A stretch of 63,988 nt of DNA, the filler included, from Aduncisulcus paluster (taxonomy: Eukaryota), in assembly GCA_024181965.1 (NCBI GenBank). It is 5 parts of 5 records of this genome, joined end to end, with 100 filler letters (N's around TTAATTAATTAA, not from the genome) between each part and the next. Parts side by side here need not be neighbours in the genome. Positions count along the whole stretch, not along the records: positions 60,375 to 63,988 come from BQXS01010003.1; 4 more parts are not named here. One strand, written 5' to 3'. The translations under genes were made by a program, and so were the position numbers. Below, piece after piece: positions 5,454-63,988 of the stretch. The notes below the pieces were generated by a model. It had not been told where the DNA came from, ran no database searches, and was given only the letters and a program-made list of their open reading frames with translations. Within the stretch, counting starts at the first letter, position 1; each line of letters begins with the position of its first letter.

Positions 5454-6174
5454 AAGTACGAGAAAACCTAACAATATGCGATGTTAGAACACAAAATCAT
5501 CAAATTAGCATTGAATTTATAGAATAAACGCGTTCAATTTTTTTGTAATGGCTTCAAATGTGATTTTACAATGATTATTTTTTTTGTCTGGAGAAATCAA
5601 TTAAAATAATTTATCTGGTGTTATTCAAGCATGAAGGTATCGTTTTCGAATAAAAATCTATTTGGTCGTTTCCAATATCTGCGAGGGCATCTTTTCGCCG
5701 ATAAATGCGTAATGACGAAATTTTAAAGGCATTAATCGCCAAATTAGGGATTTATGATGTGCAAGAAAATGCATTTATGGAAATAATTCAGTATTTGCAA
5801 AGCTNNNNNNNNNNNNNNNNNNNNAAGTACGAGAAAACCTAACAATATGCGATGTTAGAACACAAAATCATCAAATTAGCATTGAATTTATAGAATAAAC
5901 GCGTTCAATTTTTTTGTAATGGCTTCAAATGTGATTTTACAATGATTATTTTTTTTGTCTGGAGAAATCAATTAAAATAATTTATCTGGTGTTATTCAAG
6001 CATGAAGGTATCGTTTTCGAATAAAAATCTATTTGGTCGTTTCCAATATCTGCGAGGGCATCTTTTCGCCGATAAATGCTTAATGACGAAATTTTAAAGG
6101 CATTAATCGCCAAATTAGGGATTTATGATGTGCAAGAAAATGCATTTATGGAAATAATTCAGTATTTGCAAAGC
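5454..6174. repeat. 350-bp overlap duplicated across a 20-N scaffold gap (5454-5803 = 5825-6174); assembly artefact or two alleles
   Basis: The copies are identical except G5709 vs T6080. Confidence 0.9.
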
Positions 6175-15808: not shown

Positions 15809-15908
15809 NNNNNNNNNNNNNNNNNNNNNNNNNNNNNNNNNNNNNNNNNNNNTTAATTAATTAANNNNNNNNNNNNNNNNNNNNNNNNNNNNNNNNNNNN
15901 NNNNNNNN
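15809..15908. other. Artificial contig linker (N44-TTAATTAATTAA-N44)
   Basis: All-frame stop linker within N runs; the same 100-nt structure recurs three more times. Confidence 0.98.
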
Positions 15909-31614: not shown

Positions 31615-31714
31615 NNNNNNNNNNNNNNNNNNNNNNNNNNNNNNNNNNNNNNNNNNNNTTAATTAATTAANNNNNNNNNNNNNNNNNNNNNNNNNNNNNN
31701 NNNNNNNNNNNNNN
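31615..31714. other. Artificial contig linker
   Basis: N44-TTAATTAATTAA-N44. Confidence 0.98.
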
Positions 31715-45662: not shown

Positions 45663-46186
45663 TAAAATATTTTTTTTGAGAATAAAGAGTTCTATTTTGA
45701 TTTTCACAAGCTAAATATCAATATATCTTATATTAACTTGAGATGCTTTATTGTGGCAAAAGATGTTGATTCATATTTGAGCAGAATAATAAAAGAACAT
45801 TGCCTGATATGGCCTTCTTGTATTATTAATATCTTTAAAAACATTTTTTCTTGAGATGGCATTCCATTTATATTCGTAATTCCACCTCAATTTTTCAATC
45901 AATGATCTTCTTCTTATCCAAGAAAGTAGAAGAAAGGATCCGAGAAATGTCTCATATGAAGTGTATATACAATGTAGAAAATGAAATAGAGCCGTATAAA
46001 CCCAAGTACATCAGTCATTATCGATTCGAATCACGAAAATTGTGGCTTTATTTTCAAAAAAAAAACGCAAATTGCAGGTACTTAGCAGACACTTAGCAGA
46101 CAAATTTCGCTTTGGCAGGCAGTCCCTGCCAGAAGTGCATCCCTGGCTTTATTTTCTGCCTATTGAGACTATTTATTGGATATTTG

Positions 46187-49135
46187 ATGGTTGATTTTCA
46201 TGTTTTAGGTCTTTTTATTTTCTTTTTTATCCTTTTATTAAGTTTTTTCGCTAAATCAACAGCTCAAAGTCTCAATGGCGCTATTTCAACAAAAGGTGAA
46301 GAAGAATTGCCATTTTTATTCAATGATTCAAATCTACTGGCACGTCTTTGTATTATATTTTCTCTTGAATCCTCCTGTACTCTCACCATTAGTGACATGC
46401 TAAACTGGACAGGATCACTGATTTTAAGTCACAATGATTCTGATGGAATTGGAAATATCACCAACATTTATGGGTTACAGTATTTTCGTCAAGTTATCAC
46501 TATTGAGCTCAACGATCAGCTTATTGAAGATCTCTCTCCTCTCTCTCAACTATATTCTCTCCAATCTCTAAGTATGGATAATAATTCGATGTTAACTGAT
46601 CTTTCTCCACTGTTTGGTTTGATAAATTTCTCATCTTTTAGCTGTTATGAATGTGTGAATCTTTTGATCAGTTCAATCCAACTTTCTTCAGTCTTTCCGA
46701 ATGGTATTTGGACGAATTGGCGCATTTATAATAATTTGAATTCCGAATCATATTATCCATGTACTCTTACAAACGATACTGCATGTATGTGGTTTTCCTC
46801 ATTATATGATTCATCGAACTGTTCTCCCTTCCAAGATTCGGCTGTGTATGCTTCTCAGATATCTTCTGTTGGTACTGGAATGAATGATATTCCTGATTAT
46901 TGTTATTGGGCTGCTGCTGATCTAATTTCACTTGATTTACCACTATTTTATGGTGGAGAGACCTTGTCTGGTTTGAAGTATTTCAAAGAGCTTCAAAATT
47001 TAACAGTAACTGATTACTACGATTCTTTATTGGATATTTCAGATATTAGTTTTCTAACTTCATTGAATCAGATCACCATCTCTTCCGTGAATACTTTTGA
47101 TCCATTTCCAATATTTTCCTCATCTGCTCCATCATCGGTAACAATCTTAAATTCCTCAATCTGTCATTCTGGGACTCAGAATGAGGCCAATAATTTCTTC
47201 TTAACAACCTTTCCTTCATTGACATTTTGTGATATTTCCATCTCATCAACCTGTGAGTGTGATCCTACGCCGTCCTTAGCTGATTTTAAAGTCTGCAACA
47301 ATGGTGTGATCCAGTGTGCATTTGGATATACAAGGGTGGATAATGAAAATGGATCATCTTCATGTATTAAACAGGAGCTTTCCATTTGTGATATGTGCTC
47401 GATTAATTCACAATGTACTCAAGATGCTGGATCTACCCTGCCCCCTTCATGTGAGTGCAAGAATGGATGGTATGGAGACACATGTCGCGCCGAATGTCCA
47501 ACCGATTCCGATAGTGCCTGTAATGGACAAGGGACATGTGACAATGGGGTGTGTGAATGTGCGGATAATTGGTATGGATATTCGTGTGGGTTTGAATGTC
47601 CAGTCATTGTCTCAGAGGATGATGGATCTGAAGACCAATGTGGTGAATCGAGTGGACATGGAAACTGTGATGTAACATCAAATGTATGTTCTTGTGAGAG
47701 TGAGTATGAAGGAGAAGCCTGTGAATATGTCAGGTTTACAAATAGTACTCTAAAGACAGCAATATGTGATGTGTTATCTCTCTCTACGTGTAATATTATT
47801 CCAAGTCAAATGGAAAATCTGATTTCTTTGAGTATAATCGATGAAATCTCAGTCACTGATCTGTTTGGTCTTAAATTCGCTGTAAACCTTGAAGAATTAA
47901 CTATTTCTGGAGCAGATTTATCTGATTTTGATGCTCTATTGCCTATTTCTGAGTTGTTATACCTTGATTATCTGAATATTAGCGATTCAAATATCACTGA
48001 TTTTGATAATATTCCTTCTTCTGTTTCTGATCTTGATCTCTCTAATTCTTCCCAATTTTTATCAAATTCATTTCAAAGTATTTCTTCTTTATTCCTTTCT
48101 TCGCTAAATATTAGTAATACTGGGATATTTTCCCTTTCTTTTGATTTTTCAGAGTCAAATCTTGTTCATTCTCTTTCAATCTTAAATATTAGTGGTAATT
48201 CACTTGAAAATCTTAGTTTTTTAGGAGATTTTATCGAATTAACTACTCTCAATATTTCTGATGTACAAGTTGGTGACATTCCAACAAGTATTCAAGAAGA
48301 AGATGTTCAATATTGGATTGAAGATTTATTAAATTTAGAATTTCTGTATATTTCCAAAAATAGTATTTCAAATCTCTCGTTTTTATCGGTTTTTAGTTCA
48401 TCATTATCATTTCTTGATCTTTCTGAAAATATAATTTCGGATATTTCTTTCTTATATTTCTTTTCAAATCTAACTGAGTTAATTATTAATAACAATTTCA
48501 TTCATTTTGGAACATTTGATGAATCTCAATGGAATCAAATGTTCCCTAATTTAGTATTTTCGAGCGAATTTTCTATATCTATCGAAGACCAGAATTCTCT
48601 AAAATGTTCTGACCTCTCTTCCATTGATGCCATTAGTTCTGGCAAAGTGTGTGTTGAGTCTGCTCCTGGGTCTGGAGCATGGTATACGACGTGTGCAAGT
48701 GCATTTTCCGCGGTATATTCATCCTCGGGTGAGTTATCATGCGTCATGACTCCTTCGTGCGACGGTGGATGTGCATATGGAGATGAGTGCAAAATAGAAG
48801 ACAATGGAGATGCTTCGTGTCAATCTGTTATTGTTGATCCTGGACTTCGTGCACATGTTGGTTCGTTTATCACTGAGCAGCACAAACTTGACGATATGAC
48901 ATTTTCTATGGCAGCACTGCAGACCCTTACTTCTACAAACTCGTTGTCATATTCCTCTTCTGAGCTCACGGATTTACGTGGTATCGAGCATATGATACAT
49001 CTGACGGAACTTGATCTTAGCGATTGTTCACAACTCTCTAACGTATTTTCGCTTCATTCTCTCGTCGGGTTACAACACCTCGATCTGTCGAACTGTGCCC
49101 TATCATCCTCTGTAAACGGTTTGTCAAATCTGATC
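46187..49135 (+). CDS. Secreted/surface protein with internalin-like leucine-rich repeats and EGF-like repeats, 3'-truncated
   Basis: Signal peptide from ATG 46187; LRRs (IEDLSPLSQLYSLQSLSMDNN; LDLSENIISDISFL) alternate with CxC..GWYG..C EGF units. Confidence 0.88.
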
Positions 49136-49235
49136 NNNNNNNNNNNNNNNNNNNNNNNNNNNNNNNNNNNNNNNNNNNNTTAATTAATTAANNNNNNNNN
49201 NNNNNNNNNNNNNNNNNNNNNNNNNNNNNNNNNNN
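49136..49235. other. Artificial contig linker
   Basis: N44-TTAATTAATTAA-N44. Confidence 0.98.
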
Positions 49236-51112: not shown

Positions 51113-53524
51113 TTACTTCTCTCTTTCTGATAAGACTTTAATAATATCAACATCTCTGCCCTCGTATTTCTGGAAATCTTCCATTGTCTCCCCAATCTTC
51201 ATATTCTTCAAGAACAAACGTCTAGATGCGAGAACAAAGTCGATTTCACTGTCATTTCCACTCCTTTCAGCGTAACTAAGGGCATCATGCCACTTAATGA
51301 GATCAACACACACATCAATAGCAGCATGAATATTCCCATTATTCACAAGCACACTGATAGCCTTGTCATACTTTCCAGAAAGTAGTAGAACATTGATATT
51401 ACTGCCGTATTCCATCCCACAGCTGTACACGCGATCAACGAGGCCAAGGGCACTGTACGCAACTCGAGCGCATTCCATGTTGCCCGCTTTCACAGAAAAC
51501 AGAGCCAAGACACCCCAAGTATGTGAGCTGGCAGCAAACCGGGCGACCTTGAGCACATTCTTCCAAAGTGGACTTGTCTCGGGGGAAGGAGATGCTAAGA
51601 TTTGCTTACATATATCATAGACAAAGATAGAGTTATGGGGCAGAGTAAAATGTTGGTATCCTTCTGACACATGATGAGTGATGATAGTGGGACATGTGGG
51701 AGTTGCAGGGGTGCTGTTGATACGTCCAAAGAACTCAATGGTGGAATTAGGACTCAATCCTTTACAAAGTTCAACAACCATACATTCACAGAGACCTGCA
51801 TCAATATCGGCACATGAGGGGTACAAAGACACGCACAATGATCCACGTGAAATAAATGCAATGATCCCGAGACCTTCGCACCATTTGTGTTCGCTGACAT
51901 CACTGGCCACATACCACCCAGATGAATGCGCAGTAGACCCAGTTGTTGAGGAAGATCCTGCCCCACTCCCTGCAGAGCCACCCATGAGGTTATTGACGAC
52001 ATCGTTGACGAAGCAGCATCTCAGTTCGCCCGTGTTCTCCACCCAAGACATCATGTGAGAAGGAGAGAGTGGCATGGAGTCAATACCAATGGCAGCAATA
52101 GGGGATGGAGAGAGGAGAGGGAATGGGTGGGTCCGACCACTTGTGAGGTCAACGATCCTTCCCAGCCTTGAGTGGCTCTTATCGATGAACACACACTCGG
52201 TCATCCCAATATCAACAGCTACACGTTTGCTCACGTCACAATGAAGTTGTACAGTTCTCAGCTTCTTTCCAACGTGGGAGAAGACATGGGTCTTTTCGCT
52301 GAAATCGAAGACAATGATCTGACTAGCGCCAATACAGACTCTCTTCACACCTTCACCGGTGTACTCCACTTGGAAAGGAGAGGACACGAAGGACATATCA
52401 TCGTCTTCGGACTTACCTCGTGTATTTAAGATAACAAGTTGATGAGAACGAGTGAGAACAGCGACAATGTCGAAACCAGCAGCGAGGGCAACAATTTCTC
52501 CGCGGAGCTCCAAAGTCTCACATAGAGCTTTCTTTTTAACAGATATCACTCTTGGAGAGGTATGTTCAATGAGAAAATCTCCACAAATAACGGGAGAACA
52601 GAGGAAATTGAGGCAAAAGACTGAGGCTCCGCAGACACACATGGCTGTCATACCGTCCTGTGTCACTGAAAGAGCACTGATCGGATGGCGTGTAGAACGA
52701 GTTGAAATCGTACACAGCGAAAAGGAAAGAACAATAACGTGTCCTGTGAGTGTACCAACGACTACAGAACGGTCAGCACTCTCAACGGGGACGAGGCATG
52801 TAATGGGCCCATTTAATACTCTACTTTGAGCAACACAACGATCACCAACGAAATGACGGACGATTCCATCCTCACTTCCAGCATATAGACCGGTAGTTCC
52901 CCAGTAGAGACAAGTAACAGGAGCTGTAGGACCAGTAATTATGGATTCTCCGGCTCCAAGAATAGATAATTGAGTAATTGAATTTCCAGTGCTCACAGCA
53001 ACGTTTGAACAATCAGGAGACATTACAATAGCATATACAGGTGGGCCAAACTTTCTTGGACTTGCTCTTAGTCCTCCATATTGAGAAAATATAGAAACAG
53101 CACCATTTTCAGTTCCAACAGCAATAGATCCACCATCAGCGGCCCAAGCAATACTTGTGATACAACTTGGGTCAGATTTTGATGCATTTACCGATTTTTT
53201 TGAAGTTATGTTTAGATTTAGAGGAGTTTGATGTTTTGGTGGAATAATTTCTAGGGTAATCAAGTGAATAAAACCATTTTCACATCCTATTACAATATCG
53301 TATGAATCAGTTGAATATGAGGAGGCCATATAGGCTGTTGTCGTACTAACACTTGAGCTAGCAGTGGAAACTCTTTTCTTCTTTGTCATACATGTTATAG
53401 GGGAGTCTAATTTCAATTTTGCAGAGGCACTTGAAACAACTTCATCTTTATAATTATAGAGCTCAATATCAAGTTCATCTTTGGATGGTGTTATACAATA
53501 TTGCTCATCAAGCCAGAGTGACAT
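51113..53524 (-). CDS. IFT80: Intraflagellar transport protein 80 (divergent)
   Basis: N-terminal WD40 repeats. The C-terminus (WKNVLKVARF...WGVLA...ARVAYSALGLVDRV; AIDVCVDLIKWHDALSYA...IDFVLASRRLFLKNMKIGET..DF) matches the IFT80 helical tail pattern. Confidence 0.82.
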   Translation of the reverse strand: MSLWLDEQYCITPSKDELDIELYNYKDEVVSSASAKLKLDSPITCMTKKKRVSTASSSVSTTTAYMASSYSTDSYDIVIGCENGFIHLITLEIIPPKHQTPLNLNITSKKSVNASKSDPSCITSIAWAADGGSIAVGTENGAVSIFSQYGGLRASPRKFGPPVYAIVMSPDCSNVAVSTGNSITQLSILGAGESIITGPTAPVTCLYWGTTGLYAGSEDGIVRHFVGDRCVAQSRVLNGPITCLVPVESADRSVVVGTLTGHVIVLSFSLCTISTRSTRHPISALSVTQDGMTAMCVCGASVFCLNFLCSPVICGDFLIEHTSPRVISVKKKALCETLELRGEIVALAAGFDIVAVLTRSHQLVILNTRGKSEDDDMSFVSSPFQVEYTGEGVKRVCIGASQIIVFDFSEKTHVFSHVGKKLRTVQLHCDVSKRVAVDIGMTECVFIDKSHSRLGRIVDLTSGRTHPFPLLSPSPIAAIGIDSMPLSPSHMMSWVENTGELRCCFVNDVVNNLMGGSAGSGAGSSSTTGSTAHSSGWYVASDVSEHKWCEGLGIIAFISRGSLCVSLYPSCADIDAGLCECMVVELCKGLSPNSTIEFFGRINSTPATPTCPTIITHHVSEGYQHFTLPHNSIFVYDICKQILASPSPETSPLWKNVLKVARFAASSHTWGVLALFSVKAGNMECARVAYSALGLVDRVYSCGMEYGSNINVLLLSGKYDKAISVLVNNGNIHAAIDVCVDLIKWHDALSYAERSGNDSEIDFVLASRRLFLKNMKIGETMEDFQKYEGRDVDIIKVLSEREK

Positions 53525-53849: not shown

Positions 53850-54542
53850 ATGCATTCTCTATTATTGGATGAAATTGATAGTGGATATTTCATGGGCGTT
53901 AAGAAACGCCGTCGCAGTTCTGCTGTAAAAATGCAGATCGGAGATTATATGGATGCTAGGAGTAAGAAACCAGTCCAATCCCTTCTGAAAAAGTACCAAG
54001 AAAAAGATATATTTTTTTGTGATGTTGTTTTAAAGATGAACAGGAGATATAAATTGCAGGAGAGAATTCTTTTGATAACAGAGGGAGCTATTTACAATTT
54101 GGATATGAAATTTCGGATGAGGCGTCGTATATCTCTTTCTCAAATGCTTACTGTTGCCATGTCAAGATATTGTGATAATTTCGTTGTTCTCAGATGTCAA
54201 GATGAATATGACTATGTCTTTGTAAGTGGTAAAAAAATAGAGATAACAACTCAGATCCAAGAAGCATATCATGCAAGCGTGAAAAAACCGTTGAGGATTA
54301 CCCTGACAAACTCTATTTATCTTCGTATTGGAAAGAAATGCCTCCCTCGTGAGATTCTTTTCTCCAGTGCCCGTGGCAAGGTTGTTATCGGTATAAGAGA
54401 GATCTCTGAGGAGGAGGAAGAGTATACCGAGGAAGAGGAAGAGGAAGAAGAGGAGCAATTGGATATGGAAGAAGATTTGGAAGGTACGGATGATATCATG
54501 GAGGTTGAGTACGATGGAGGGGAGGTCCTCGCATCTGAATAG
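53850..54542 (+). CDS. Stand-alone myosin-I tail homology 1 (TH1, PH-like) domain protein with an acidic tail
   Basis: GVKKRRRSS....GDYM; F.D.V.KMNRR.K.QERILLIT..AIYNL; RRI.L.....V.MS...DNFVVL....EYD. There is no motor or IQ region upstream. Confidence 0.85.
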   Translation: MHSLLLDEIDSGYFMGVKKRRRSSAVKMQIGDYMDARSKKPVQSLLKKYQEKDIFFCDVVLKMNRRYKLQERILLITEGAIYNLDMKFRMRRRISLSQMLTVAMSRYCDNFVVLRCQDEYDYVFVSGKKIEITTQIQEAYHASVKKPLRITLTNSIYLRIGKKCLPREILFSSARGKVVIGIREISEEEEEYTEEEEEEEEEQLDMEEDLEGTDDIMEVEYDGGEVLASE

Positions 54543-56687: not shown

Positions 56688-57683
56688 TTAAGGTTCCTCT
56701 TTCTCTATTTCTTTCTTGGTTATTCCTTTTCCACCAAACCATAAAAAGTTCATGGGAATATAAGATACAATCTCAGTAATTCCTTCTTCTTTAGTTCTTA
56801 AAAACCGCTTTAACTGTGCAATAACCTCCTCTGATCCTCTTAATATGGGTTCAACAATCTCTTTGTCACAAGAACATATCATATGAGTGGCCTCGAACCC
56901 ATTAGAACAGAGAATATCAGCAAGAGGATCATTGGTCCCAAATACAGGCTCTGCTCCCATATCCTTGAAGAATTGCATCAAGTTTACAAGTGGAACTGCA
57001 GCTGGATGCGGTTTTATGGTGGCCATATTGGTGGCAGTCCCACAAATAAAACTTCCTTCACACATAAGGAAAGAACGGGCATTATTCATTATATTACAAA
57101 CACCAGGATACGGAATATACTCTAATAGCCCTTCCAAGACAACAATACTCGGAAGGGAGGAATCAAATCCAGATGTGGACACAAAATTCTCCCAGGAAGC
57201 TGTCTCTCGTAAATCTAGGGGATGATATTCAACTTTCTTAAAATTTTGACATAATAACTCACCAGATTCAGCAAGTTTTGAAGAGATGGCACCACTGACT
57301 TCCGATACAACTGGAGAGAGATCTGTTAGGAACCAAGAAACATTCTGAGCAACAGAATCTGGGAATTTCAGACGAAAGGGCCGAGTATCACACCCACAGG
57401 CCAATATGACAACTTGGGAGATTCCCTTATCGATGATACAATCGCTAACATATTCATCCAATTCTTTAGTGCGAATTCCAGTCCAAGGAACCAATTGAGA
57501 GTGTTCACTAAATGACATAACTTGTTTCAATATTTCAAAACCTTTGCCTTCAGCTAAGTAGCTTGCCATAGGATCATTGATTAGCGCTTGAGGGTGAGCA
57601 CTTTCCCGGGCACGTTCAGCAGCAAGATACAATGAAGTTAAGGATACAGATGCGAATCCAGAAGGGTTTACAATAGATTTCAT
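56688..57683 (-). CDS. SAM-dependent methyltransferase, leucine-carboxyl-methyltransferase superfamily (bacterial ML2640-like type)
   Basis: VSLTSLYLAAERARES....LINDPMA; IRTKELDE; QVVILACGCDTR.FRL; DLR...W; GFD...P..V.LEGLL.Y. Likely ATG is at 57683. Confidence 0.85.
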   Translation of the reverse strand: MKSIVNPSGFASVSLTSLYLAAERARESAHPQALINDPMASYLAEGKGFEILKQVMSFSEHSQLVPWTGIRTKELDEYVSDCIIDKGISQVVILACGCDTRPFRLKFPDSVAQNVSWFLTDLSPVVSEVSGAISSKLAESGELLCQNFKKVEYHPLDLRETASWENFVSTSGFDSSLPSIVVLEGLLEYIPYPGVCNIMNNARSFLMCEGSFICGTATNMATIKPHPAAVPLVNLMQFFKDMGAEPVFGTNDPLADILCSNGFEATHMICSCDKEIVEPILRGSEEVIAQLKRFLRTKEEGITEIVSYIPMNFLWFGGKGITKKEIEKEEP

Positions 57684-58154
57684 TTTTTTTTGGATGTTGA
57701 GCCCTCCAATCGAATTCTGCTTGTGATTCTTTAACATAAATCTCCAATAGGCAAACGAAATATGTTACAATGTATTATTTAGATTTCAAAATGATAATAA
57801 ACATTATTATTCCGTTCAATCTCAACATATTGGAACGATTGGAAATATTTCTGAAAATTAAATATAAAATGCCGTTTTAGAAGTTAATTTAGAATACAAT
57901 ATGAACAATTATAAGAGATTAAATCTGAATAATTTGCATATTATGTTATATTGGAATTGGATATTGCGCCAAGACAAACTCTCGAATCTAGTTATTGGAT
58001 TGCACATCCAAACAGCTTCTCGTGAGTATTTGATAGAATTATCATCAATTTTTATTCCATATTTATTCCTTCCTTTGTCGCCGAAATACAACGAAAAAGA
58101 ACCAATCCAAATTTTCTAAAAATTTCTGTTCTTGCTGATAGTACGAGGATAGAA

Positions 58155-60274
58155 ATGCAATCAATGAAAAAAACGAAATTAGTATGTTTGATTTTGATTA
58201 TTTTGAATTTCTATAAGCATTCTATTCCTGCCTTTCGAAGAGACAACATGATGTTGTCAACATCTGTCCTGGAGGAATGAAATATATCTTAATGTGACTT
58301 TCAATTTATATTATTTCTTTGCTTATTTTTTTAATAGAATACCTATATTGATCCTATTTATATTCATGAGGGTAATCGAGAATCCATCCCTATTCCACGA
58401 GATGACGCCAGAATTATATCTCCTCCATTCTCTTTAATCAAAGCAAAGGGTGAAAAATGGAGCAAAGGGGCTGGATACGATGATAAGAGCATTGGGGCTC
58501 AATCAATGCTGAAAGGAGAATCATCTGTTTCTGTCTCTGATATGTCAATACCCTTCGCTGAGCCCCAAAACATCAATGGTGCATATATTTGCATTTTTAG
58601 TGAATGGAGTTGCCCACCTCTTGTTTTTACATTTTATCATTCAGATGGTACGAGCATGCAGAAAGAGTATATGTTTGCAAATTGTAAGATATCTCATTCT
58701 TGGAACTTTCTCCCTATTTCTTTGGATAATATCACTCGTTGTGAGATAAAAGTTAAAGAAAAGGAAGGAAAAATCACGAATTTTATCTTCTACTCCCTCG
58801 CTTTTATCCGCAGAGAGGAATGTGTGTCTTCTTGGGATTCTAAAAAGAAATTCTGGTCATCAATTCCCTCTATTCCTGCAAAGTTTATTTTTAGATGCCA
58901 AGGAAACACCCTCCCCATCTCCCGAGATGACAAATCTGTGGTTATTCCATCTCTCACCGATGTTTCTGCCTTCGATCGAACAAAAAGTAAGGAATCCCGT
59001 CGCTATGATGTGAGTCTTGAAGCTCAAGAAATGCTTAAAGGGGAGAATTGTCTTGATGAAGTCTCTTTTATGTCTATTCCTTTCTCTTCCCCCTGTGATC
59101 TGTCCGGGGTCTATATATCTTCAAATTATAATAGTTCTCCGTCTCTTATTATCACTTGCACACAGGTGGATGGCAGGGTTCGAACCAAGAAATATGAATT
59201 CGTAAAACCTAAACATTGGACGGAGTGGTTCTTCCTTCATATTGATCTCGAAAATGTGACCAAGTGTGAGGTTGAAGGGAAAGGGACATGGAATGATATG
59301 AACAGTCTTAATTTTGTAATCAGTAATTTCATATGCGTTCAAAAAATGAAGGATTCGCCTGGTACAAAGTCTCTCTCTGATCCTGCTCTTGTTTCCTCTT
59401 CCTCTTCATCTTCCTCCTCTTCCTCAGCATCCTCTTCCTCCTCTTCCTCAGCATCCTCTTCATCTTCCTCCTCAGCATCCTCTTCACTCACTCAGAATCC
59501 AAATATATCTTCTCTTCCTTATTCAGAACAAGATATTATCGATATCGATCATACTGAGGAAGAGCCAAAGCAACCATTGATAAATCGGGATATTGCTCTA
59601 AAGGGTGAAAAGGAAAAGGGAAAAGCCAAAGATAGCCTAGAAGATTCCAGTGAAGATTTTTGGGAGTTTGTCGAGAGTGATAATGATCCAAATTTAGACA
59701 CAGCAGTGGCGCTGCCAAAGCATGACAACGATCAGAATCATATTATTCAACAAAAAGACAAAGAAACTGAAGAACCAAAGAAGAAAGAAGAAGAAGAAGA
59801 AGAAGAAGAAGAAGAAGAGGAAGAAAAGGAAGAAGAAGAGGAAGAAAAGGAAGAAAAACCTAGATTACAAGAAAAACGGACACGAGAGAAGGAAGAGGAG
59901 GAAGAAGACAGTATTCTTGAACTTGATGGATCCTCTTCCTCTCCAATTGAAGCCTCAAATGAGTCAGTGTTTAACCCTGAGTTTATTCATGAAGGTGATT
60001 TGGAGAGTATTCCAATTTCACGAGATGCCCCAATCATTGTACATCCGTGTTATTCTAAGATTAAGGTAACCGATAATTCTTTAAATTCGTCATCGAGATA
60101 TTATGATCTTAATACCCAAGTTCTTGGAATGTTTAGAGGGGAAGATCGATCTGTATTCTTATCCCATCTCTTCATTCCTTTCCAAATAACCAGTGATATT
60201 AAAGGTGCGTATATTTGTGTGAATAAGTATTATAGTTCGCGATCTCTCATATTTACTTTCTCTCGTACTCCCGT
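58155..60274 (+). CDS. Protein with at least 3 copies of an unnamed ~150-aa repeat domain and poly-Ser/poly-Glu linkers; exons 58155-58181 and 58338->60274, intron 58182-58337; 3'-truncated
   Basis: Spliced MQSMKKTKL|NTYIDPIYIHEGNRESIPIPRDD; repeated SIPF...GAYIC...L.FTF...KKYEF...W.FL.IDL.NV..CE; GTATGT...AATAG intron. Confidence 0.8.
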
Positions 60275-60374
60275 NNNNNNNNNNNNNNNNNNNNNNNNNN
60301 NNNNNNNNNNNNNNNNNNTTAATTAATTAANNNNNNNNNNNNNNNNNNNNNNNNNNNNNNNNNNNNNNNNNNNN
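60275..60374. other. Artificial contig linker
   Basis: N44-TTAATTAATTAA-N44. Confidence 0.98.
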
Positions 60375-60393
60375 ATAGATATTTTAGAACACA

Positions 60394-63300
60394 ATGGATC
60401 CAAAACCAACCTCAGAACGTAGCCAAGATATTGTATGTTTCTGAAAGTTTTTGAATTTATACATTTTATGATGTTTGATATCATTAATTTGAAAAATAAT
60501 GCCCATATTGCTTTCATAACCCCTTTTCTGTTTCGGGTGTTTTTTATTGCTTTATTTCCACCAAATGCCCAATTAATTTGTTAGATTCAAGAAGTTAAAC
60601 CAAAGTTTATTCATGAAGGTGACGAATCTAGCTCTCCAATTCCTCGGGATTCCCCGAATGTTAAGAGTCCTGATATAACTGTTATTGAAGCCAAGAATAG
60701 GACCAAGGAAGAAGGTGATGAAGACTATGATCAGAGTTCTAATGCACAAGAGATGATGAAAGGAGAGGAGGTTTCTTGGGAATCATTTAAATTTACAGAT
60801 ATCTCCCTTCCTTTCTCCACCTCTGCTCCCATTAAAGGTGCTTATATTTGTATTGGAGGAAAATATTTCTGTCCACCCTCACACCTTATCTTCTCTCTTA
60901 CATCTTCAAAGGGGGAGAAAATGGTTAAAAAATATGAATTTCCTGAATTAGAAAATGATAGCTGGTTCTTTCTCCCTATTGATCTCTCTGATGTTATTCT
61001 GTGTGAGATTAAAGGGAAAGGGAGAAAGAAAGAGTCTTTTAGAATCTACTCCCTTGTTTTCATTTGTAGAGAAGAAACTCCTGAAGAAATCAAAGCTCAT
61101 GAAGCCAGAGAGAAACTATGGTCTGAAAGTCCAGTTGTGAAACCAGAATTTGTTCAGGAAGGAGATAGAGATTCTATTCCTATTCCACGTGATGATCCAA
61201 AGCTTGTAGATCCTTCATTCTCAATGGTTAAGTGCAAGGATGATTTGGTGAGTAAGGAATCTAAGAAGTATGATCAGAGTTTAAGAGCACAAAGAATGTT
61301 AAAAGGGGAAGATGATGTATGGTTATCCCATATTTCTATCCCTTTCCCATCACCTAGTCCAATGAAAGGTGCTTATATCTGTGTGAATAAGAATGCTAGT
61401 TCACCCTCTCTTCTCTTCACTCTCACTGATTGTGATGGTAAGAAGACATCCAAGAAGTATGAATTCACAGTCCCTGAAGATGAATATGAATGGCACTTCC
61501 TTCCTATTGAATTAGACAATATTGTATTGTGTGAGATTGAAGGGAAAGGAATTTGGATAGAGAAGAATAGTCGATGTTTTATCATCCTCTCCCTCGTATT
61601 CTTTCGAGAAGAAACCCCTGAAGAACGTCATATTCGAGAATCCATTGAGGAGCAATGGTCTAAAGCTGTATGTTCATTATATTTTATTGGTTTAATATTT
61701 TCACATTTCTTTGTTATATTATTTGATACGATTCACGCTAATCTTGTTTTACAATATTATCTCTCAATTTATTTCTAATACCATTATATATCTCTTTTTC
61801 AAAAATGATATGTAGCCCACCATTAAATCAGAGTTTATGAATTCTGGCGATGCATCTGCCATCCCCATTCCACGTGGTAATGCAGCCGTTAATAATCCTT
61901 CTTTTGAGATGGTCAAGGGAAAGAATGATTCGAAGAGTAAGGAATCTGAGGAGTATGACCGAAGTGAAAAGGCTCAAGAAATGTTGAGAGGTGAAGGTAG
62001 GGTGGAATTGTCCCATCTTTTCATTCCTTTCCCATCGCCTAGTCCAATGAAAGGTGCTTATAGCTGTGTGGATAACCGTCATGGTTCACCCTCTCTTCTC
62101 TTCACTTTCACTCTTTCGAATGGTAAGAAGATATCTAAGAAGTATGAATTCACAAGACCTGAACATTACTATGAATGGCACTTCCTTCCTATTGATTTGG
62201 ATAATGTTGTATTGTGTGAGATTGAAGGGAAAGGAATGTGGAAGGGGAAGAATAGTCGATGTTTTGAAATCTTTTCTTTAGTTTTCCTTAAACGGCATAT
62301 TTTATTGGGAATAGTTGAATATATATATAAAGGAAACTTTGAATGCATTCCAATCCCTCGAGATGATCCAACATTTATCAGTCCAGATTTTACTGCAATT
62401 AATGCAAGAAAGAAAACAGAATATAAAAGTGATTACCAAGATTTTGATGATGAGAGAGAAATCTATGTTGATACGAGCGATTCTGCACAAGCGATAATGA
62501 AGGGAGAGTTTGGTCGTTTTCAGTTTTCTCATATATCCATTCCTTTCAAACCATCATCAACATCTATAAAATGTGCATATATCTGTCTACGATTTCATCA
62601 GAAGTTTTCTACGTCTCTATCTCTTCTATTTACATTCACTTCTTCAAATGGAAACAAAATATCATATTTATATAAATTTGATACTGAATCCGAAGATTGT
62701 GGTTGGTTTGAGCTTTCAATTGGTCTCCCTGATGTTGTTTCATGTGATATCAAAGGAGACGAAGAAAAAAGGGAGAATTTTGATATTAATTCCCTTGCTT
62801 TTTATCGAGAAGATACTCCTGATGAAGAGATTGCTCGAGAAAAACAAAGAATATATCTTAAAGAACTCTGGTTGAAATCCCCGCCTGTGATACCAATGTC
62901 TGTAACCAAAGAAATTGTAGATTCTATTGATGATACCTCAATCATAAATCCTTCATTCTCAGATGTTACGTGTAAGAATAATGTATGTTGTAAGGAATCT
63001 GAGTATTATGATCAGAGTTCAAATGCACAAAAAATGTTAAAGGGGGAAGGTATTGCATTCTCCTTATCCCATCTTTCCATCCCTTTTCAATCATTTAATT
63101 CAATTAAAGGTGCATATATTTCTGTTTCTAAATATTTAATTCCTGCCCTTCTCTTCACTTTCACTCTTTTTAATGGAAAGAAGATATCTAAGAAGTATGA
63201 ATTCACAGAAGATCTACATAAATCTGAATATTACTTCTTTCTTCCTATTGAGCTTCCAAAGGTTGTTTTATGTGAGATTCAGGGAGAAGGAAAATCGAAA

Positions 63301-63988
63301 CATGGGAAGGGTCGTCGAAGTTTTCAAATGACATCCCTCTTTTTCATTAAAGGTGAAGAGATTCCTCCCCTTCCTTCAGATTCCACAAAGCTTATCAAAC
63401 ATGACTCTTTCACTCTCACCTCCTCTGCAACCATCACTCCTCAGTGCATCATTGGTCATGGTGGATTTGGTGAAGTTCTTCTTGTTGAAGTTGAAGGTAT
63501 TCCTATTCCTTGTGTTCTGAAGAAAATGCTCCATGAAGCTGATGAAAGGGTTGTTAACGGATGTCAAAAGGAGTTCAAGATGCAACGAAAGTTATTTAAC
63601 AACCCCAAATGTTTCAATCGTATCCCTCGTCCTTTGTATATCCTTGACCTTCTTGATGCAGATATGAAAGGTGAATATGGATTTATCATGGAATATTGTG
63701 CTGGAGGCAGTGTGAGTGCATTTGCTAGAAGTTGGTGTGATGATGGCAAGTATGTGAGTGATATTGGTGATGCTGATGATAGTGAAGATTCTGATTCATC
63801 TTGTATTTCTGATTCTGACTCCAAGTATAATATTGGCACAACTCATTTTGATCCCATGACACTAAATCCTGTGAAAGTATGTTCTCTCTGTGTTGGCATG
63901 ATTGAGTGTCTTGATGATGTGTTTAGAGCAAAGAAAGACCTTGTCCATCGAGATGTCAAACCTGATAACTTCCTTGTTCGTGTTGATC
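60394..63988 (+). CDS. Five tandem ~150-aa repeat domains fused to a protein kinase; exons 60394-60432, 60585-61667 and 61816->63988; runs off the window end
   Basis: Phase-0 introns 60433-60584 and 61668-61815 (GTATGT...AG) restore one frame. The kinase starts near 63430: IIGHGGFGEV, CVLKK, CQKEF, FIMEYCAGGS, LVHRDVKPDNFLV. Confidence 0.88.

Follow-up and report, generated by a model that had tools for sequence, protein, structure and literature searches.

A five-module array of a predicted jelly-roll domain joined to a Ser/Thr-type kinase in the free-living protist Aduncisulcus paluster

What kind of protein is encoded by a gene in which repeats of no named sequence family stand in front of a protein kinase, and what might the repeats contribute to that kinase? 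The question arises at the end of a 63,988-nucleotide stretch of Aduncisulcus paluster DNA (assembly GCA_024181965.1; hereafter the window), in which unrelated contigs are chained through N44-TTAATTAATTAA-N44 joiners. The gene lies on its own contig of 3,614 bases (window 60375-63988). A sequence-only reading had proposed two introns and a single repeat-kinase gene, and the spliced translation bears this out: starting from the ATG at 60394 and removing two GTATGT...TAG introns, the conceptual product has 1,098 residues and is 100% identical to the deposited gene model P0001. A. paluster is a free-living protist, and an array of five modules and a kinase are joined in one of its genes, with the following features:

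60375..60393, + strand: 5' flank; contig start at 60375, immediately following an N44-TTAATTAATTAA-N44 joiner
60394..60432, + strand: exon 1, encoding MDPKPTSERSQDI; the paralogue P0003 opens with the identical peptide
60433..60584, + strand: intron 1, 152 nt, GTATGTTT...TTGTTAG, 72% A+T
60585..61667, + strand: exon 2 (gene model)
60585..61097, + strand: repeat 1, subtype A (family HMM, subtype comparison)
61107..61634, + strand: repeat 2, subtype B (family HMM, subtype comparison); the copy that was folded alone
61668..61815, + strand: intron 2, 148 nt, GTATGTTC...ATATGTAG, 79% A+T; falls within the linker that separates repeats 2 and 3 and causes a frame shift
61816..63988 (window end), + strand: exon 3 (gene model)
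61816..62316, + strand: repeat 3, subtype B (family HMM, subtype comparison)
62317..62835, + strand: repeat 4, divergent subtype A; the helical linker usual elsewhere is missing between it and repeat 3
62857..63372, + strand: repeat 5, subtype B (family HMM, subtype comparison)
63373..63453, + strand: short linker with the conserved pre-kinase segment KLIKHDSFTLTSSATITPQCII
63454..63988, + strand: protein kinase domain, N-terminal two thirds, cut by the contig end
63454-63471, + strand: G-loop GHGGFG, agreeing with the glycine-rich GxGxxG pattern
63514-63525, + strand: VLKK, containing the invariant lysine of the VAIK type
63760-63825, + strand: acidic insert
63946-63969, + strand: HRDVKPDN, a HRDxKxxN catalytic loop of Ser/Thr type

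Removal of intron 2 yields a REETPEE-to-EF spacing of 21 residues, the same as in the linker of repeats 1 and 2, which no intron interrupts. In a presumed RNA run, the bin 61585-61705 is without cover and the alignment of one contig breaks off precisely at 61816, leaving 9 letters unaligned, which fits splicing of intron 2, short of demonstrating it. Among the joints in two read-derived contig sets (one of them presumed RNA), none of the 15 listed, of 23, matches intron 1 or intron 2. The fusion of repeats and kinase is independent of splicing, because a single unbroken frame of 724 codons covers repeats 3-5 and the beginning of the kinase. The layout of intron 1 is also present in the gene on the neighbouring contig. 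An upstream repeat array at 58338-60272 belongs to another contig and another gene, and both the gene described here and the neighbouring gene are cut by contig ends.

The five modules occupy the N-terminal 890 residues. Each repeat spans about 175 residues, K[GC]AY anchors are spaced 173-179 residues apart, and pairwise identity among the five is 38-65%. A family HMM, built from 247 copies including these five, recognises them with E-values from 6.5e-51 to 8.2e-85, and the repeat consensus proposed earlier agrees with the family consensus. Five copies were likewise claimed and found; what did not stand is the single kind of repeat, as the copies fall into two subtypes in the order A-B-B-A-B-kinase, with an A-B pair as the unit. 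Identity amounts to 58% and 66% within the subtypes and 43% between them, in a comparison by position that separated the subtypes where average-linkage clustering did not. In the family at large, 138 proteins read AB, and the linker-free junction of repeats 3 and 4 recurs in P0002 and P0003. The nearest relative of each repeat is the repeat at the same position in a paralogue and not its neighbours within the gene; the array is therefore old and has been maintained.

How large is the family, and how far does it reach? The sequence-only reading had suggested building an HMM from the repeats and counting copies and domain partners. Run on proteins, this shows that the family is not low-copy: at least 317 proteins carry the domain (787 domain hits in the 317 fetched), i.e., at least 317 of 15,316 predicted A. 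paluster proteins or about 2%, with 1 to 15 repeats per protein, in line with the variable copy number expected. Among 1.84 billion proteins searched, 174 representatives were retrieved at E≤1e-3, the best 150 of which were listed; a second search listed 120 of 142 matches. A. paluster is the source of all 112 named matches, of all 120 listed of the 142 and of 20 out of 20 sampled, which supports the proposed large, lineage-specific family as far as named matches go, and matches beyond those listed (the weakest 24 of 174 and 22 of 142) could come from another organism. A profile of a divergent subgroup matched only two proteins, both from A. paluster, and a scan of metagenomes for one repeat hit 106 pattern stretches, none of which was confirmed. 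About 90 members are stand-alone A-B proteins of about 365 residues; they have stereotyped ends, and the proteins are about 60-80% identical. The assembly is fragmented (N50 4.6 kb), and many of the family proteins in it are partial models.

The repeat had been described as lacking a named sequence family, and this description holds for the collections searched. Pfam returned nothing at E≤1, NCBIfam nothing at E≤0.1, and PHROGs only noise (E 0.035-0.083). Against PDB sequences, one repeat profile (A1) gave a single irrelevant match (E 0.44) and another (A2) gave no match at E≤10. The Pfam models of F5/8 type C (PF00754)/CBM32, APC10/DOC and PITH match no repeat at E≤1, and PITH is also without a match at E≤1 in the thioredoxin-fused member P0089. 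UniRef names five members (P0033, P0053, P0067, P0072, P0111) as CS/NudC domain proteins; Pfam finds no CS family in these five at E≤1, and CS chains are absent from the 50 structural matches listed for the single repeat and from those listed for the A-B pair. In the ESM Atlas, which holds no structure of the protein, the best scores are 0.77 and 0.84, under the level that counts as more than a lead. Searches of the Aduncisulcus literature found no paper treating the domain, and the genome announcement does not mention it. The repeat is a new sequence family with a known fold, set in a new architecture.

The fold itself comes from structure prediction. AlphaFold2 models repeat 2 with a pLDDT of 96.0 (pTM 0.90) and the A-B pair with a pLDDT of 95.7 (pTM 0.89), placing a helix after each domain. 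A VIA-align comparison of the repeat 2 model with 48,161 chains returns 71 chains at Z≥8, headed by the CBM32 module 7jnb_A (Z 12.2, 138 residues aligned, rmsd 3.1) and APC10 5a31_L (Z 11.8, 143 of 182 residues aligned, rmsd 3.4, model residues 13-176). Close behind are Doc1 8a3t_A (11.6), F5/8C 3nng_B (11.4), 4lks_A (11.0), the DOC domain of HECTD3 (11.0), muskelin and CUL7 (10.8 each), IFT25 (10.7) and HERC2 (10.5); some 45 members of the galactose-binding-domain-like group superpose at Z 12.2 to 9 over 118-149 aligned residues. Foldseek likewise retrieves APC10 (1jhj, E 3.3e-4) and CBM32 (4lks, E 5.2e-4), and both domains of the A-B pair return the same list of folds. According to these models, the repeat is a galactose-binding-domain-like jelly-roll, tied between CBM32/discoidin, APC10/DOC, PITH and IFT25 (Z 10-12), and the beta-sandwich or jelly-roll of a ligand-binding kind anticipated from the sequence is borne out by models and matches alike. 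The conserved cores and variable loops noticed earlier can be put in numbers, strands being more conserved than loops (1.92 vs 2.74 bits, p 1.5e-7). A two-copy prediction of the A-B complex scored 0.00; it was run without controls and without an alignment and counts neither way. A capsid or viral origin was considered and rejected, as matches in the viral structure library stayed generic (tandem F5/8C or tail-fibre, TM≤0.30).

At the other end of the protein, the GHGGFG, VLKK and HRDVKPDN motifs and the acidic insert were located as claimed. The catalytic-loop motif distinguishes Ser/Thr from Tyr kinases. The contig ends 19 bases after HRDVKPDN, which cuts the kinase just past the catalytic loop and leaves DFG onward outside the contig. 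PF00069 scores 18.5 bits on this fragment, under its gathering cut-off of 31.7, because the fragment is cut; on full paralogues it reaches 42.6-56.7 bits. Kinase motifs occur in 76 of the 317 family proteins, with the kinase C-terminal to all repeats in 75 of the 76, and the last two repeats before it are AB in 51 of 56 proteins. CVLKK is conserved across the clade, DLG follows HRD in 41 of the 48 family proteins that reach HRD, and a likewise conserved GTLVYNSYE stands where APE is expected. Judged by these motifs, about 76 members end in one stereotyped kinase clade whose catalytic residues appear intact. The description of the kinase as apparently active thus stands for the clade, while this gene's own kinase is cut before DFG/DLG. 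Whole P0003 has no match among PDB sequences at 1e-5; its kinase part gives 80 matches, all at E≥3.5e-4 and spread over unrelated families, the best being AAK1, CDPK, CK1 and IRAK4. The kinase is divergent, with catalytic motifs kept. In the other 241 of the 317 members no kinase motif is found, and since these are the majority, the role of the domain is not tied to kinases.

The protein had been read as lacking a signal peptide or membrane segment, and across the family neither a signal peptide nor a conserved membrane segment is seen, hydrophobic peaks sitting in the kinase or in repeat strands. The N-terminus encoded in the window is hydrophilic, and the only hydrophobic peak (1.67) falls inside a repeat strand. 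N-terminal MGxxxS/T and MGC motifs are those of lipid anchoring. Among 287 members that start with M, 26 begin MG, several of them as MGxxxS/T or MGC, and such predicted N-termini fit a cytosolic lipid anchor.

Which function would suit such a protein? We consider it probable, with a good deal of room for doubt, that it is a cytosolic kinase of Ser/Thr type whose DOC/discoidin-like modules bind a partner or ligand that places or controls the kinase. The 3.6 kb at hand are the 5' part of a nuclear A. paluster gene, whose product would be a soluble, multi-domain enzyme. Each module is, as modelled, a galactose-binding-domain-like beta-sandwich followed by a short helix, and the two subtypes form a rigid A-B pair that would act as a recognition module. 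By analogy with intracellular members of the fold, these pairs most likely bind proteins. They may bring the kinase to a partner, a substrate or a cellular site, or gate its activity. Among paralogues, the stretch linking the last B module to the kinase ranges from about 30 to >100 residues, a variation in length that suits a flexible tether more than direct gating. Stand-alone A-B paralogues might serve as adaptors or as competitors for the same ligands. What the analysis shows is the gene model, how the repeats are organised, the fold class, how large the family is and its restriction to A. paluster among named matches, the domain order and the retention of kinase motifs. The binding, the kind of ligand and the regulation of the kinase are the parts of this explanation that we infer; members of the fold bind variously sugars, lipids or proteins, and the shared fold alone does not give the function.

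The same fold would also suit lectin-like or lipid-binding sensors that, in the manner of CBM32 and discoidin C2 domains, bind a glycan or a membrane lipid and in this way pass a small-molecule or membrane signal on to the kinase. The best structural match is indeed a GalNAc-binding CBM32 (Z 12.2), many galactose- and fucose-binding modules follow at Z 9-11, language-model comparison offers weak leads to CBM32, CBM6 and F5/8C (0.78-0.80), and the N-termini of some members look myristoylated or palmitoylated, which would suit membranes. However, the protein-binding intracellular DOC, PITH, IFT25 and muskelin domains score within 1-2 Z units and are thus tied, the language-model scores lie under the tool's level for more than leads, and identity to any CBM is 3-12%, too low for tracing sugar-binding residues. 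Moreover, most CBM32 and discoidin modules are extracellular, whereas these proteins are without signal peptide. Hence, we regard sugar or lipid sensing as unlikely. Size and variability of the family might instead point to a diversifying intracellular recognition repertoire, immune-like or engaged in conflict, in which the kinase and other fused domains act as effectors or co-sensors: PARP catalytic (P0116), thioredoxin (P0089 and P0104), nitroreductase (P0102) and LRR (P0071). The family is very large and found in A. paluster only among the matches listed, several members share a contig, loops vary around a conserved core, partners vary, and copy number varies with recent duplications within genes (repeats 1 and 2 of P0002 are 94% identical, four repeats of P0115 89-94%). 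Yet a conserved core with variable loops is normal in any domain family, some fusions (e.g., importin-beta, DRG1, integrase) are perhaps merged gene models, the roughly 90 stand-alone A-B proteins, with their stereotyped ends and about 60-80% identity, look to be under ordinary purifying selection, and literature searches showed no pathogen or virus of A. paluster. Such a repertoire therefore seems improbable to us.

More doubtful still is the bolder proposal of an intracellular receptor repertoire in this free-living metamonad, with the A-B pair as its variable recognition part: several hundred paralogues, their loops diversifying around a constant jelly-roll core, would detect foreign or prey-derived molecules and signal through kinase, PARP or redox domains, with stand-alone A-B proteins as decoys or adaptors; if it were true, an innate-immune-like system would have been built on the DOC/discoidin fold. 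Least probable is that the family does no work in the cell and consists of ORFs from a repeated or mobile element, or of assembly and gene-prediction artefacts. Its members are many and frequently lie at contig ends, a good number of the models are partial, P0019 carries integrase and chromo domains, and DNA contigs pile up far higher on the conserved cores than on the gene-specific part, a depth that is not copy number. Against this, open frames reach 2,714-3,335 residues, family alignments give a very confident fold prediction, 41 of 48 kinases retain the catalytic motifs, conservation extends to intron positions and protein termini, P0155 and P0227 are present in an independent transcriptome-derived protein set, and the viral structure library yields generic tandem-domain matches only (TM≤0.30).

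The known systems closest to this protein are as follows. DOC domains serve protein recognition. Those of APC10/Doc1, HECTD3, HERC2 and CUL7 share the jelly-roll with the A. paluster repeat and are intracellular, as the repeats are predicted to be, at 3-12% identity and without a Pfam (E≤1) or PDB sequence match (E≤10). DOC occurs once per protein in ubiquitin-ligase contexts, whereas the A. paluster modules are arrayed as A-B tandems, each domain being followed by a helix, and are joined to a kinase. CBM32/F5/8 type C domains, which bind sugars or lipids and are bacterial or extracellular, give the best structural scores and also occur as tandem pairs (ZmpB), but the geometry of the ZmpB pair differs (rmsd 12.0 Å over both domains) and no sequence match exists. 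In DDR1 and DDR2, a discoidin-fold module and a kinase share one polypeptide as here, the DS-like domain of DDR1 matching at Z 8.8 (rank 50). DDRs are tyrosine kinases with a signal peptide and one membrane span; the A. paluster protein has neither signal peptide nor membrane span, its HRDVKPDN is of Ser/Thr type, and it carries five modules and not one or two. PITH domains have the fold in common with the repeat (PITHD1 1xpw, Z 10.5-10.9; TXNL1 9e8o_u, Z 9.6-9.7) but are single-copy. TXNL1 joins PITH to thioredoxin, as P0089 and P0104 join an A-B pair to thioredoxin, in the reverse domain order. As to the kinase, no Nek is among the best 60 of its 80 PDB sequence matches. Nek kinases are linked with ankyrin repeats, while the accessory module here is a beta-sandwich. 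For Giardia, the account in PMC3218828 gives Neks as 198 of 278 kinases, a massive lineage-specific expansion of mostly catalytically dead members. Both are fornicate kinase expansions, and the A. paluster clade differs in keeping its catalytic motifs.

The domain family is among the largest in the A. paluster genome and forms the accessory module of the main expanded kinase clade. Beside the Giardia Neks, it adds a case of a fornicate that has built a huge kinase family specific to its lineage, in this instance of kinases that appear active from their motifs, and it presents the DOC/discoidin fold as an intracellular tandem module fused to a kinase. With the family model and two confident structure predictions, annotators could name about 2% of the proteome, and the same resources would permit a search for the family in related flagellates.

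The repeat-kinase gene lies on the last contig of the window (60375-63988, 3,614 bases) and begins as follows:

60394-60432, plus strand: ATG and exon 1, encoding MDPKPTSERSQDI
60433-60584, plus strand: intron 1, GTATGTT at its start and TAG at its end
61668-61815, plus strand: intron 2, GTATGTT at its start and TAG at its end

A+T content of both introns is 72-79%. The sequence-only reading had proposed a two-intron gene, and the spliced product corresponds in full to the deposited gene model P0001 (1,098 residues, 100% identity in the protein search). Intron 2 shifts the reading frame, and its removal gives the linker ...REETPEE-(21 residues)-EF..., which restores the REETPEE-EF spacing found between repeats 1 and 2, whose linker has no intron, and thus supports this splice. 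Further support for the splices comes from the paralogue P0003, in which the first 13 residues are identical, and from the like layout of a family gene on the neighbouring contig, where a nine-codon first exon is followed by a GTATGTTT...TAG intron directly before the first repeat. Since a single 724-codon open frame spans repeats 3-5 and the kinase start, the repeat-kinase fusion is independent of any intron. The five repeats of that reading are present (mutual identity 38-65%), as are its kinase motifs GHGGFG, VLKK, an insert of 22 residues rich in Asp and Ser, and HRDVKPDN. The contig ends after HRDVKPDN; DFG and the C-lobe lie outside the data and are not necessarily absent from the gene.

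[quoted passage not shown] The window (37.7% GC) is split by four 100-base N44-TTAATTAATTAA-N44 joiners (15809-15908, 31615-31714, 49136-49235, 60275-60374) with stops in all six frames. Hence, it is a chain of separate contigs, and genes across a joiner are unlinked. Three plain 20-N gaps at 5805, 42346 and 55126 are ordinary scaffold gaps. Other contigs carry ordinary eukaryotic genes and further copies of the repeat, which occurs as two subtypes, A and B:

33806-35119, minus strand: HlyIII-family membrane protein
46112-49135, plus strand: LRR+EGF protein
51113-53524, minus strand: IFT80-like WD/TPR protein
53850-54542, plus strand: myosin TH1 tail
56688-57737, minus strand: leucine carboxyl methyltransferase
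37896-39428, plus strand: 510-aa ORF of family protein P0164
37914-38366, plus strand: divergent single domain copy (HMM E 1.5e-12), the N-terminus of P0164, the rest of which is without assignment
about 58155-60274, plus strand: second family gene, on the preceding contig; its first exon is short (MQSMKKTKL) and its intron has the form GTATGTTT...TAG
58338-58838, plus strand: its A repeat
58842-59363, plus strand: its B repeat
about 59364-59939, plus strand: its low-complexity spacer, Ser-rich then Glu/Lys-rich
59940-60272, plus strand: its third repeat, cut by the contig end

The draft genome comprises 29.4 Mb in 25,863 contigs (N50 4.6 kb, 39.1% GC), with 15,316 predicted proteins called by BRAKER2 with RNA-seq hints (PMC9933649).

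The family had been expected to be lineage-specific and high in copy number, and this is borne out by 317 fetched proteins, with all named or sampled matches from A. paluster. A nine-copy window profile searched against 1.84 billion representatives matched 174 proteins at E<=1e-3, of which 104 also pass E<=1e-30; all 20 sampled matches (10 of middle rank, 10 from the weak end) and all 112 other named matches of the protein search with the window's gene are from this species. The family HMM (173 positions) yields 787 domain matches in the 317 proteins, 619 of them spanning at least 120 positions. In two-repeat proteins, identity is 58% between first repeats, 66% between second repeats and 43% between first and second; judged by sequence, the unit of the family is the A-B pair. 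With every repeat typed by A and B profiles, 138 proteins read AB, nine ABAB and four ABBAB (with the window's gene and P0003 among the four), and AB forms the last two repeats ahead of the kinase in 51 of 56 kinase-bearing proteins. Giant members carry 8-15 repeats, among them P0116 (3,335 aa, with a PARP catalytic domain N-terminal to the kinase) and P0115 (2,714 aa, 15 repeats); their length may be real or come from gene models that were merged.

Kinase motifs occur in 76 of the 317 proteins, C-terminal to all repeats in 75, most often behind two repeats (43/76) and in four behind five; Pfam assigns Pkinase in 46 of 228 proteins. Rare partners are PARP catalytic, thioredoxin (two proteins), nitroreductase, LRR, MSP, NYD-SP28, importin-beta, DRG1 and integrase/chromo, and some of these fusions may stem from the merging of gene models. 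About 90 complete stand-alone A-B proteins of ~365 residues have stereotyped ends, with a MSSSTDAVIQTV.PEF... start, an ...PEEIKSREAREKLWSE... linker and an ...EETIAAERLSLLPWK C-terminus. A nearly invariant C-terminal peptide, ...AAERLSLLPWK, in stand-alone proteins (P0229-P0260 and others) resembles a short linear motif or else the helix between the domains in truncated form. A FastTree of the last B domain from 64 kinase-linked and 73 stand-alone proteins requires nine label changes, compared with 36-53 in 200 label shuffles, which indicates mostly separate lineages with few switches.

The kinases joined to the repeats belong to a single stereotyped clade with G.GGFGEV, CVLKK, HRD[VI]KP[DN]N, DLG and then GTLVYNSYE; of the 48 proteins that extend as far as HRD, 41 have DLG 17-20 residues after it. 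The distance from G-loop to HRD, 136-177 residues in most members and 164 in the window's gene, is shorter in typical kinases, and is long here because of the acidic insert. In a 21-member alignment the kinase core is far more uniform than the preceding linker, which varies from about 30 to >100 residues. A PDB sequence search with a clade kinase reached no known kinase group (best AAK1, E 3.5e-4).

The N-terminus is hydrophilic and the family's hydrophobic peaks fall within the kinase or repeat strands, in keeping with the proposed lack of a signal peptide or transmembrane segment; a family-wide hydrophobicity check found no conserved hydrophobic position between kinase and repeats. MG starts occur in 26 of 287 M-starting members (P0163, P0156, P0154, P0005 and P0245 among them) and include MGLGCC, MGCSSS, MGGCQS and MGSTES. 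In several members they fit the N-myristoylation or palmitoylation rule, and starts such as MGLGCC may be signals of this kind. These features suggest that the proteins are cytosolic and that some are anchored to membranes.

The repeat had been left without a named family, and it matched none in Pfam (E<=1) or NCBIfam, nor, as a 37-sequence profile, any PDB chain (E<=10). Five members (P0033, P0053, P0067, P0072, P0111) are named "NudC domain-containing" in UniRef yet consist only of A-B repeats; Pfam found no CS domain in them, and the name probably arose through automatic misannotation. Structure prediction reached a mean pLDDT of 96.0 (pTM 0.90) for repeat 2, based on an alignment of 37 window repeats and single-domain family proteins. 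For the pair of repeats 1 and 2, with 95 stand-alone proteins of two repeats in the alignment, pLDDT was 95.7 (pTM 0.89). In the models, a helix of ~16 residues follows the beta-sandwich of each module, and the high pTM of the pair suggests that its two domains are fixed relative to each other. The pair geometry fits no known two-domain arrangement compared (ZmpB tandem, rmsd 12 A). The suspected beta-sandwich/jelly-roll can be placed more precisely: according to the predicted models, the repeat is of the galactose-binding-domain-like fold class. An all-against-representatives structural search (48,161 chains) with a single repeat matched CBM32 of ZmpB (Z 12.2), human APC10 (11.8), yeast Doc1 (11.6), an F5/8 type C domain (11.4), HECTD3 DOC (11.0), muskelin discoidin and CUL7 DOC (both 10.8), IFT25 (10.7), PITHD1 (10.5), TXNL1 PITH (9.7) and XRCC1-N (9.1), at just 3-12% sequence identity. 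Foldseek agrees (APC10 E 3.3e-4, CBM32 E 5.2e-4).

Within this fold class, APC10 is a degron co-receptor, other DOC domains bind substrate or partner, PITH docks to the proteasome and IFT25 binds IFT27. Because the fold serves as a recognition module inside eukaryotic cells, A-B pairs can be read as binding modules; the analysis establishes architecture and fold, and we infer binding, a ligand and regulation of the kinase. By this analogy, A-B pairs would probably bind and thereby bring a Ser/Thr-type kinase, active by its motifs, to a partner or place; the A-B proteins that stand alone would serve as adaptors or as competitors.

CBM32 heads the structural search with APC10 next, and as the sub-families are tied in score, a fold class but no family is assigned. 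Each repeat of the window's gene has its best match (71-89% identity) at the corresponding position in a paralogue and not among its own neighbours, so the five-module array was inherited rather than recently duplicated. Recent within-gene duplications are found elsewhere (94% identity in P0002, 89-94% in P0115). In a second, word-based search, 120 of 120 among the matches listed were from A. paluster, one of them from an independent transcriptome-derived set. Placement of an active kinase by A-B binding modules is the reading we favour. A-B modules that bind glycans or lipids appear unlikely, a diversifying immune-like repertoire is rather improbable, and a non-functional repeated element or artefact is very hard to believe. 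A search of the literature on Aduncisulcus found no paper on the family, nor does it appear in the genome announcement (PMC9933649). The fold is known; new are the sequence family and its arrangement, with intracellular tandem arrays of A-B pairs on the N-terminal side of an orphan kinase clade.
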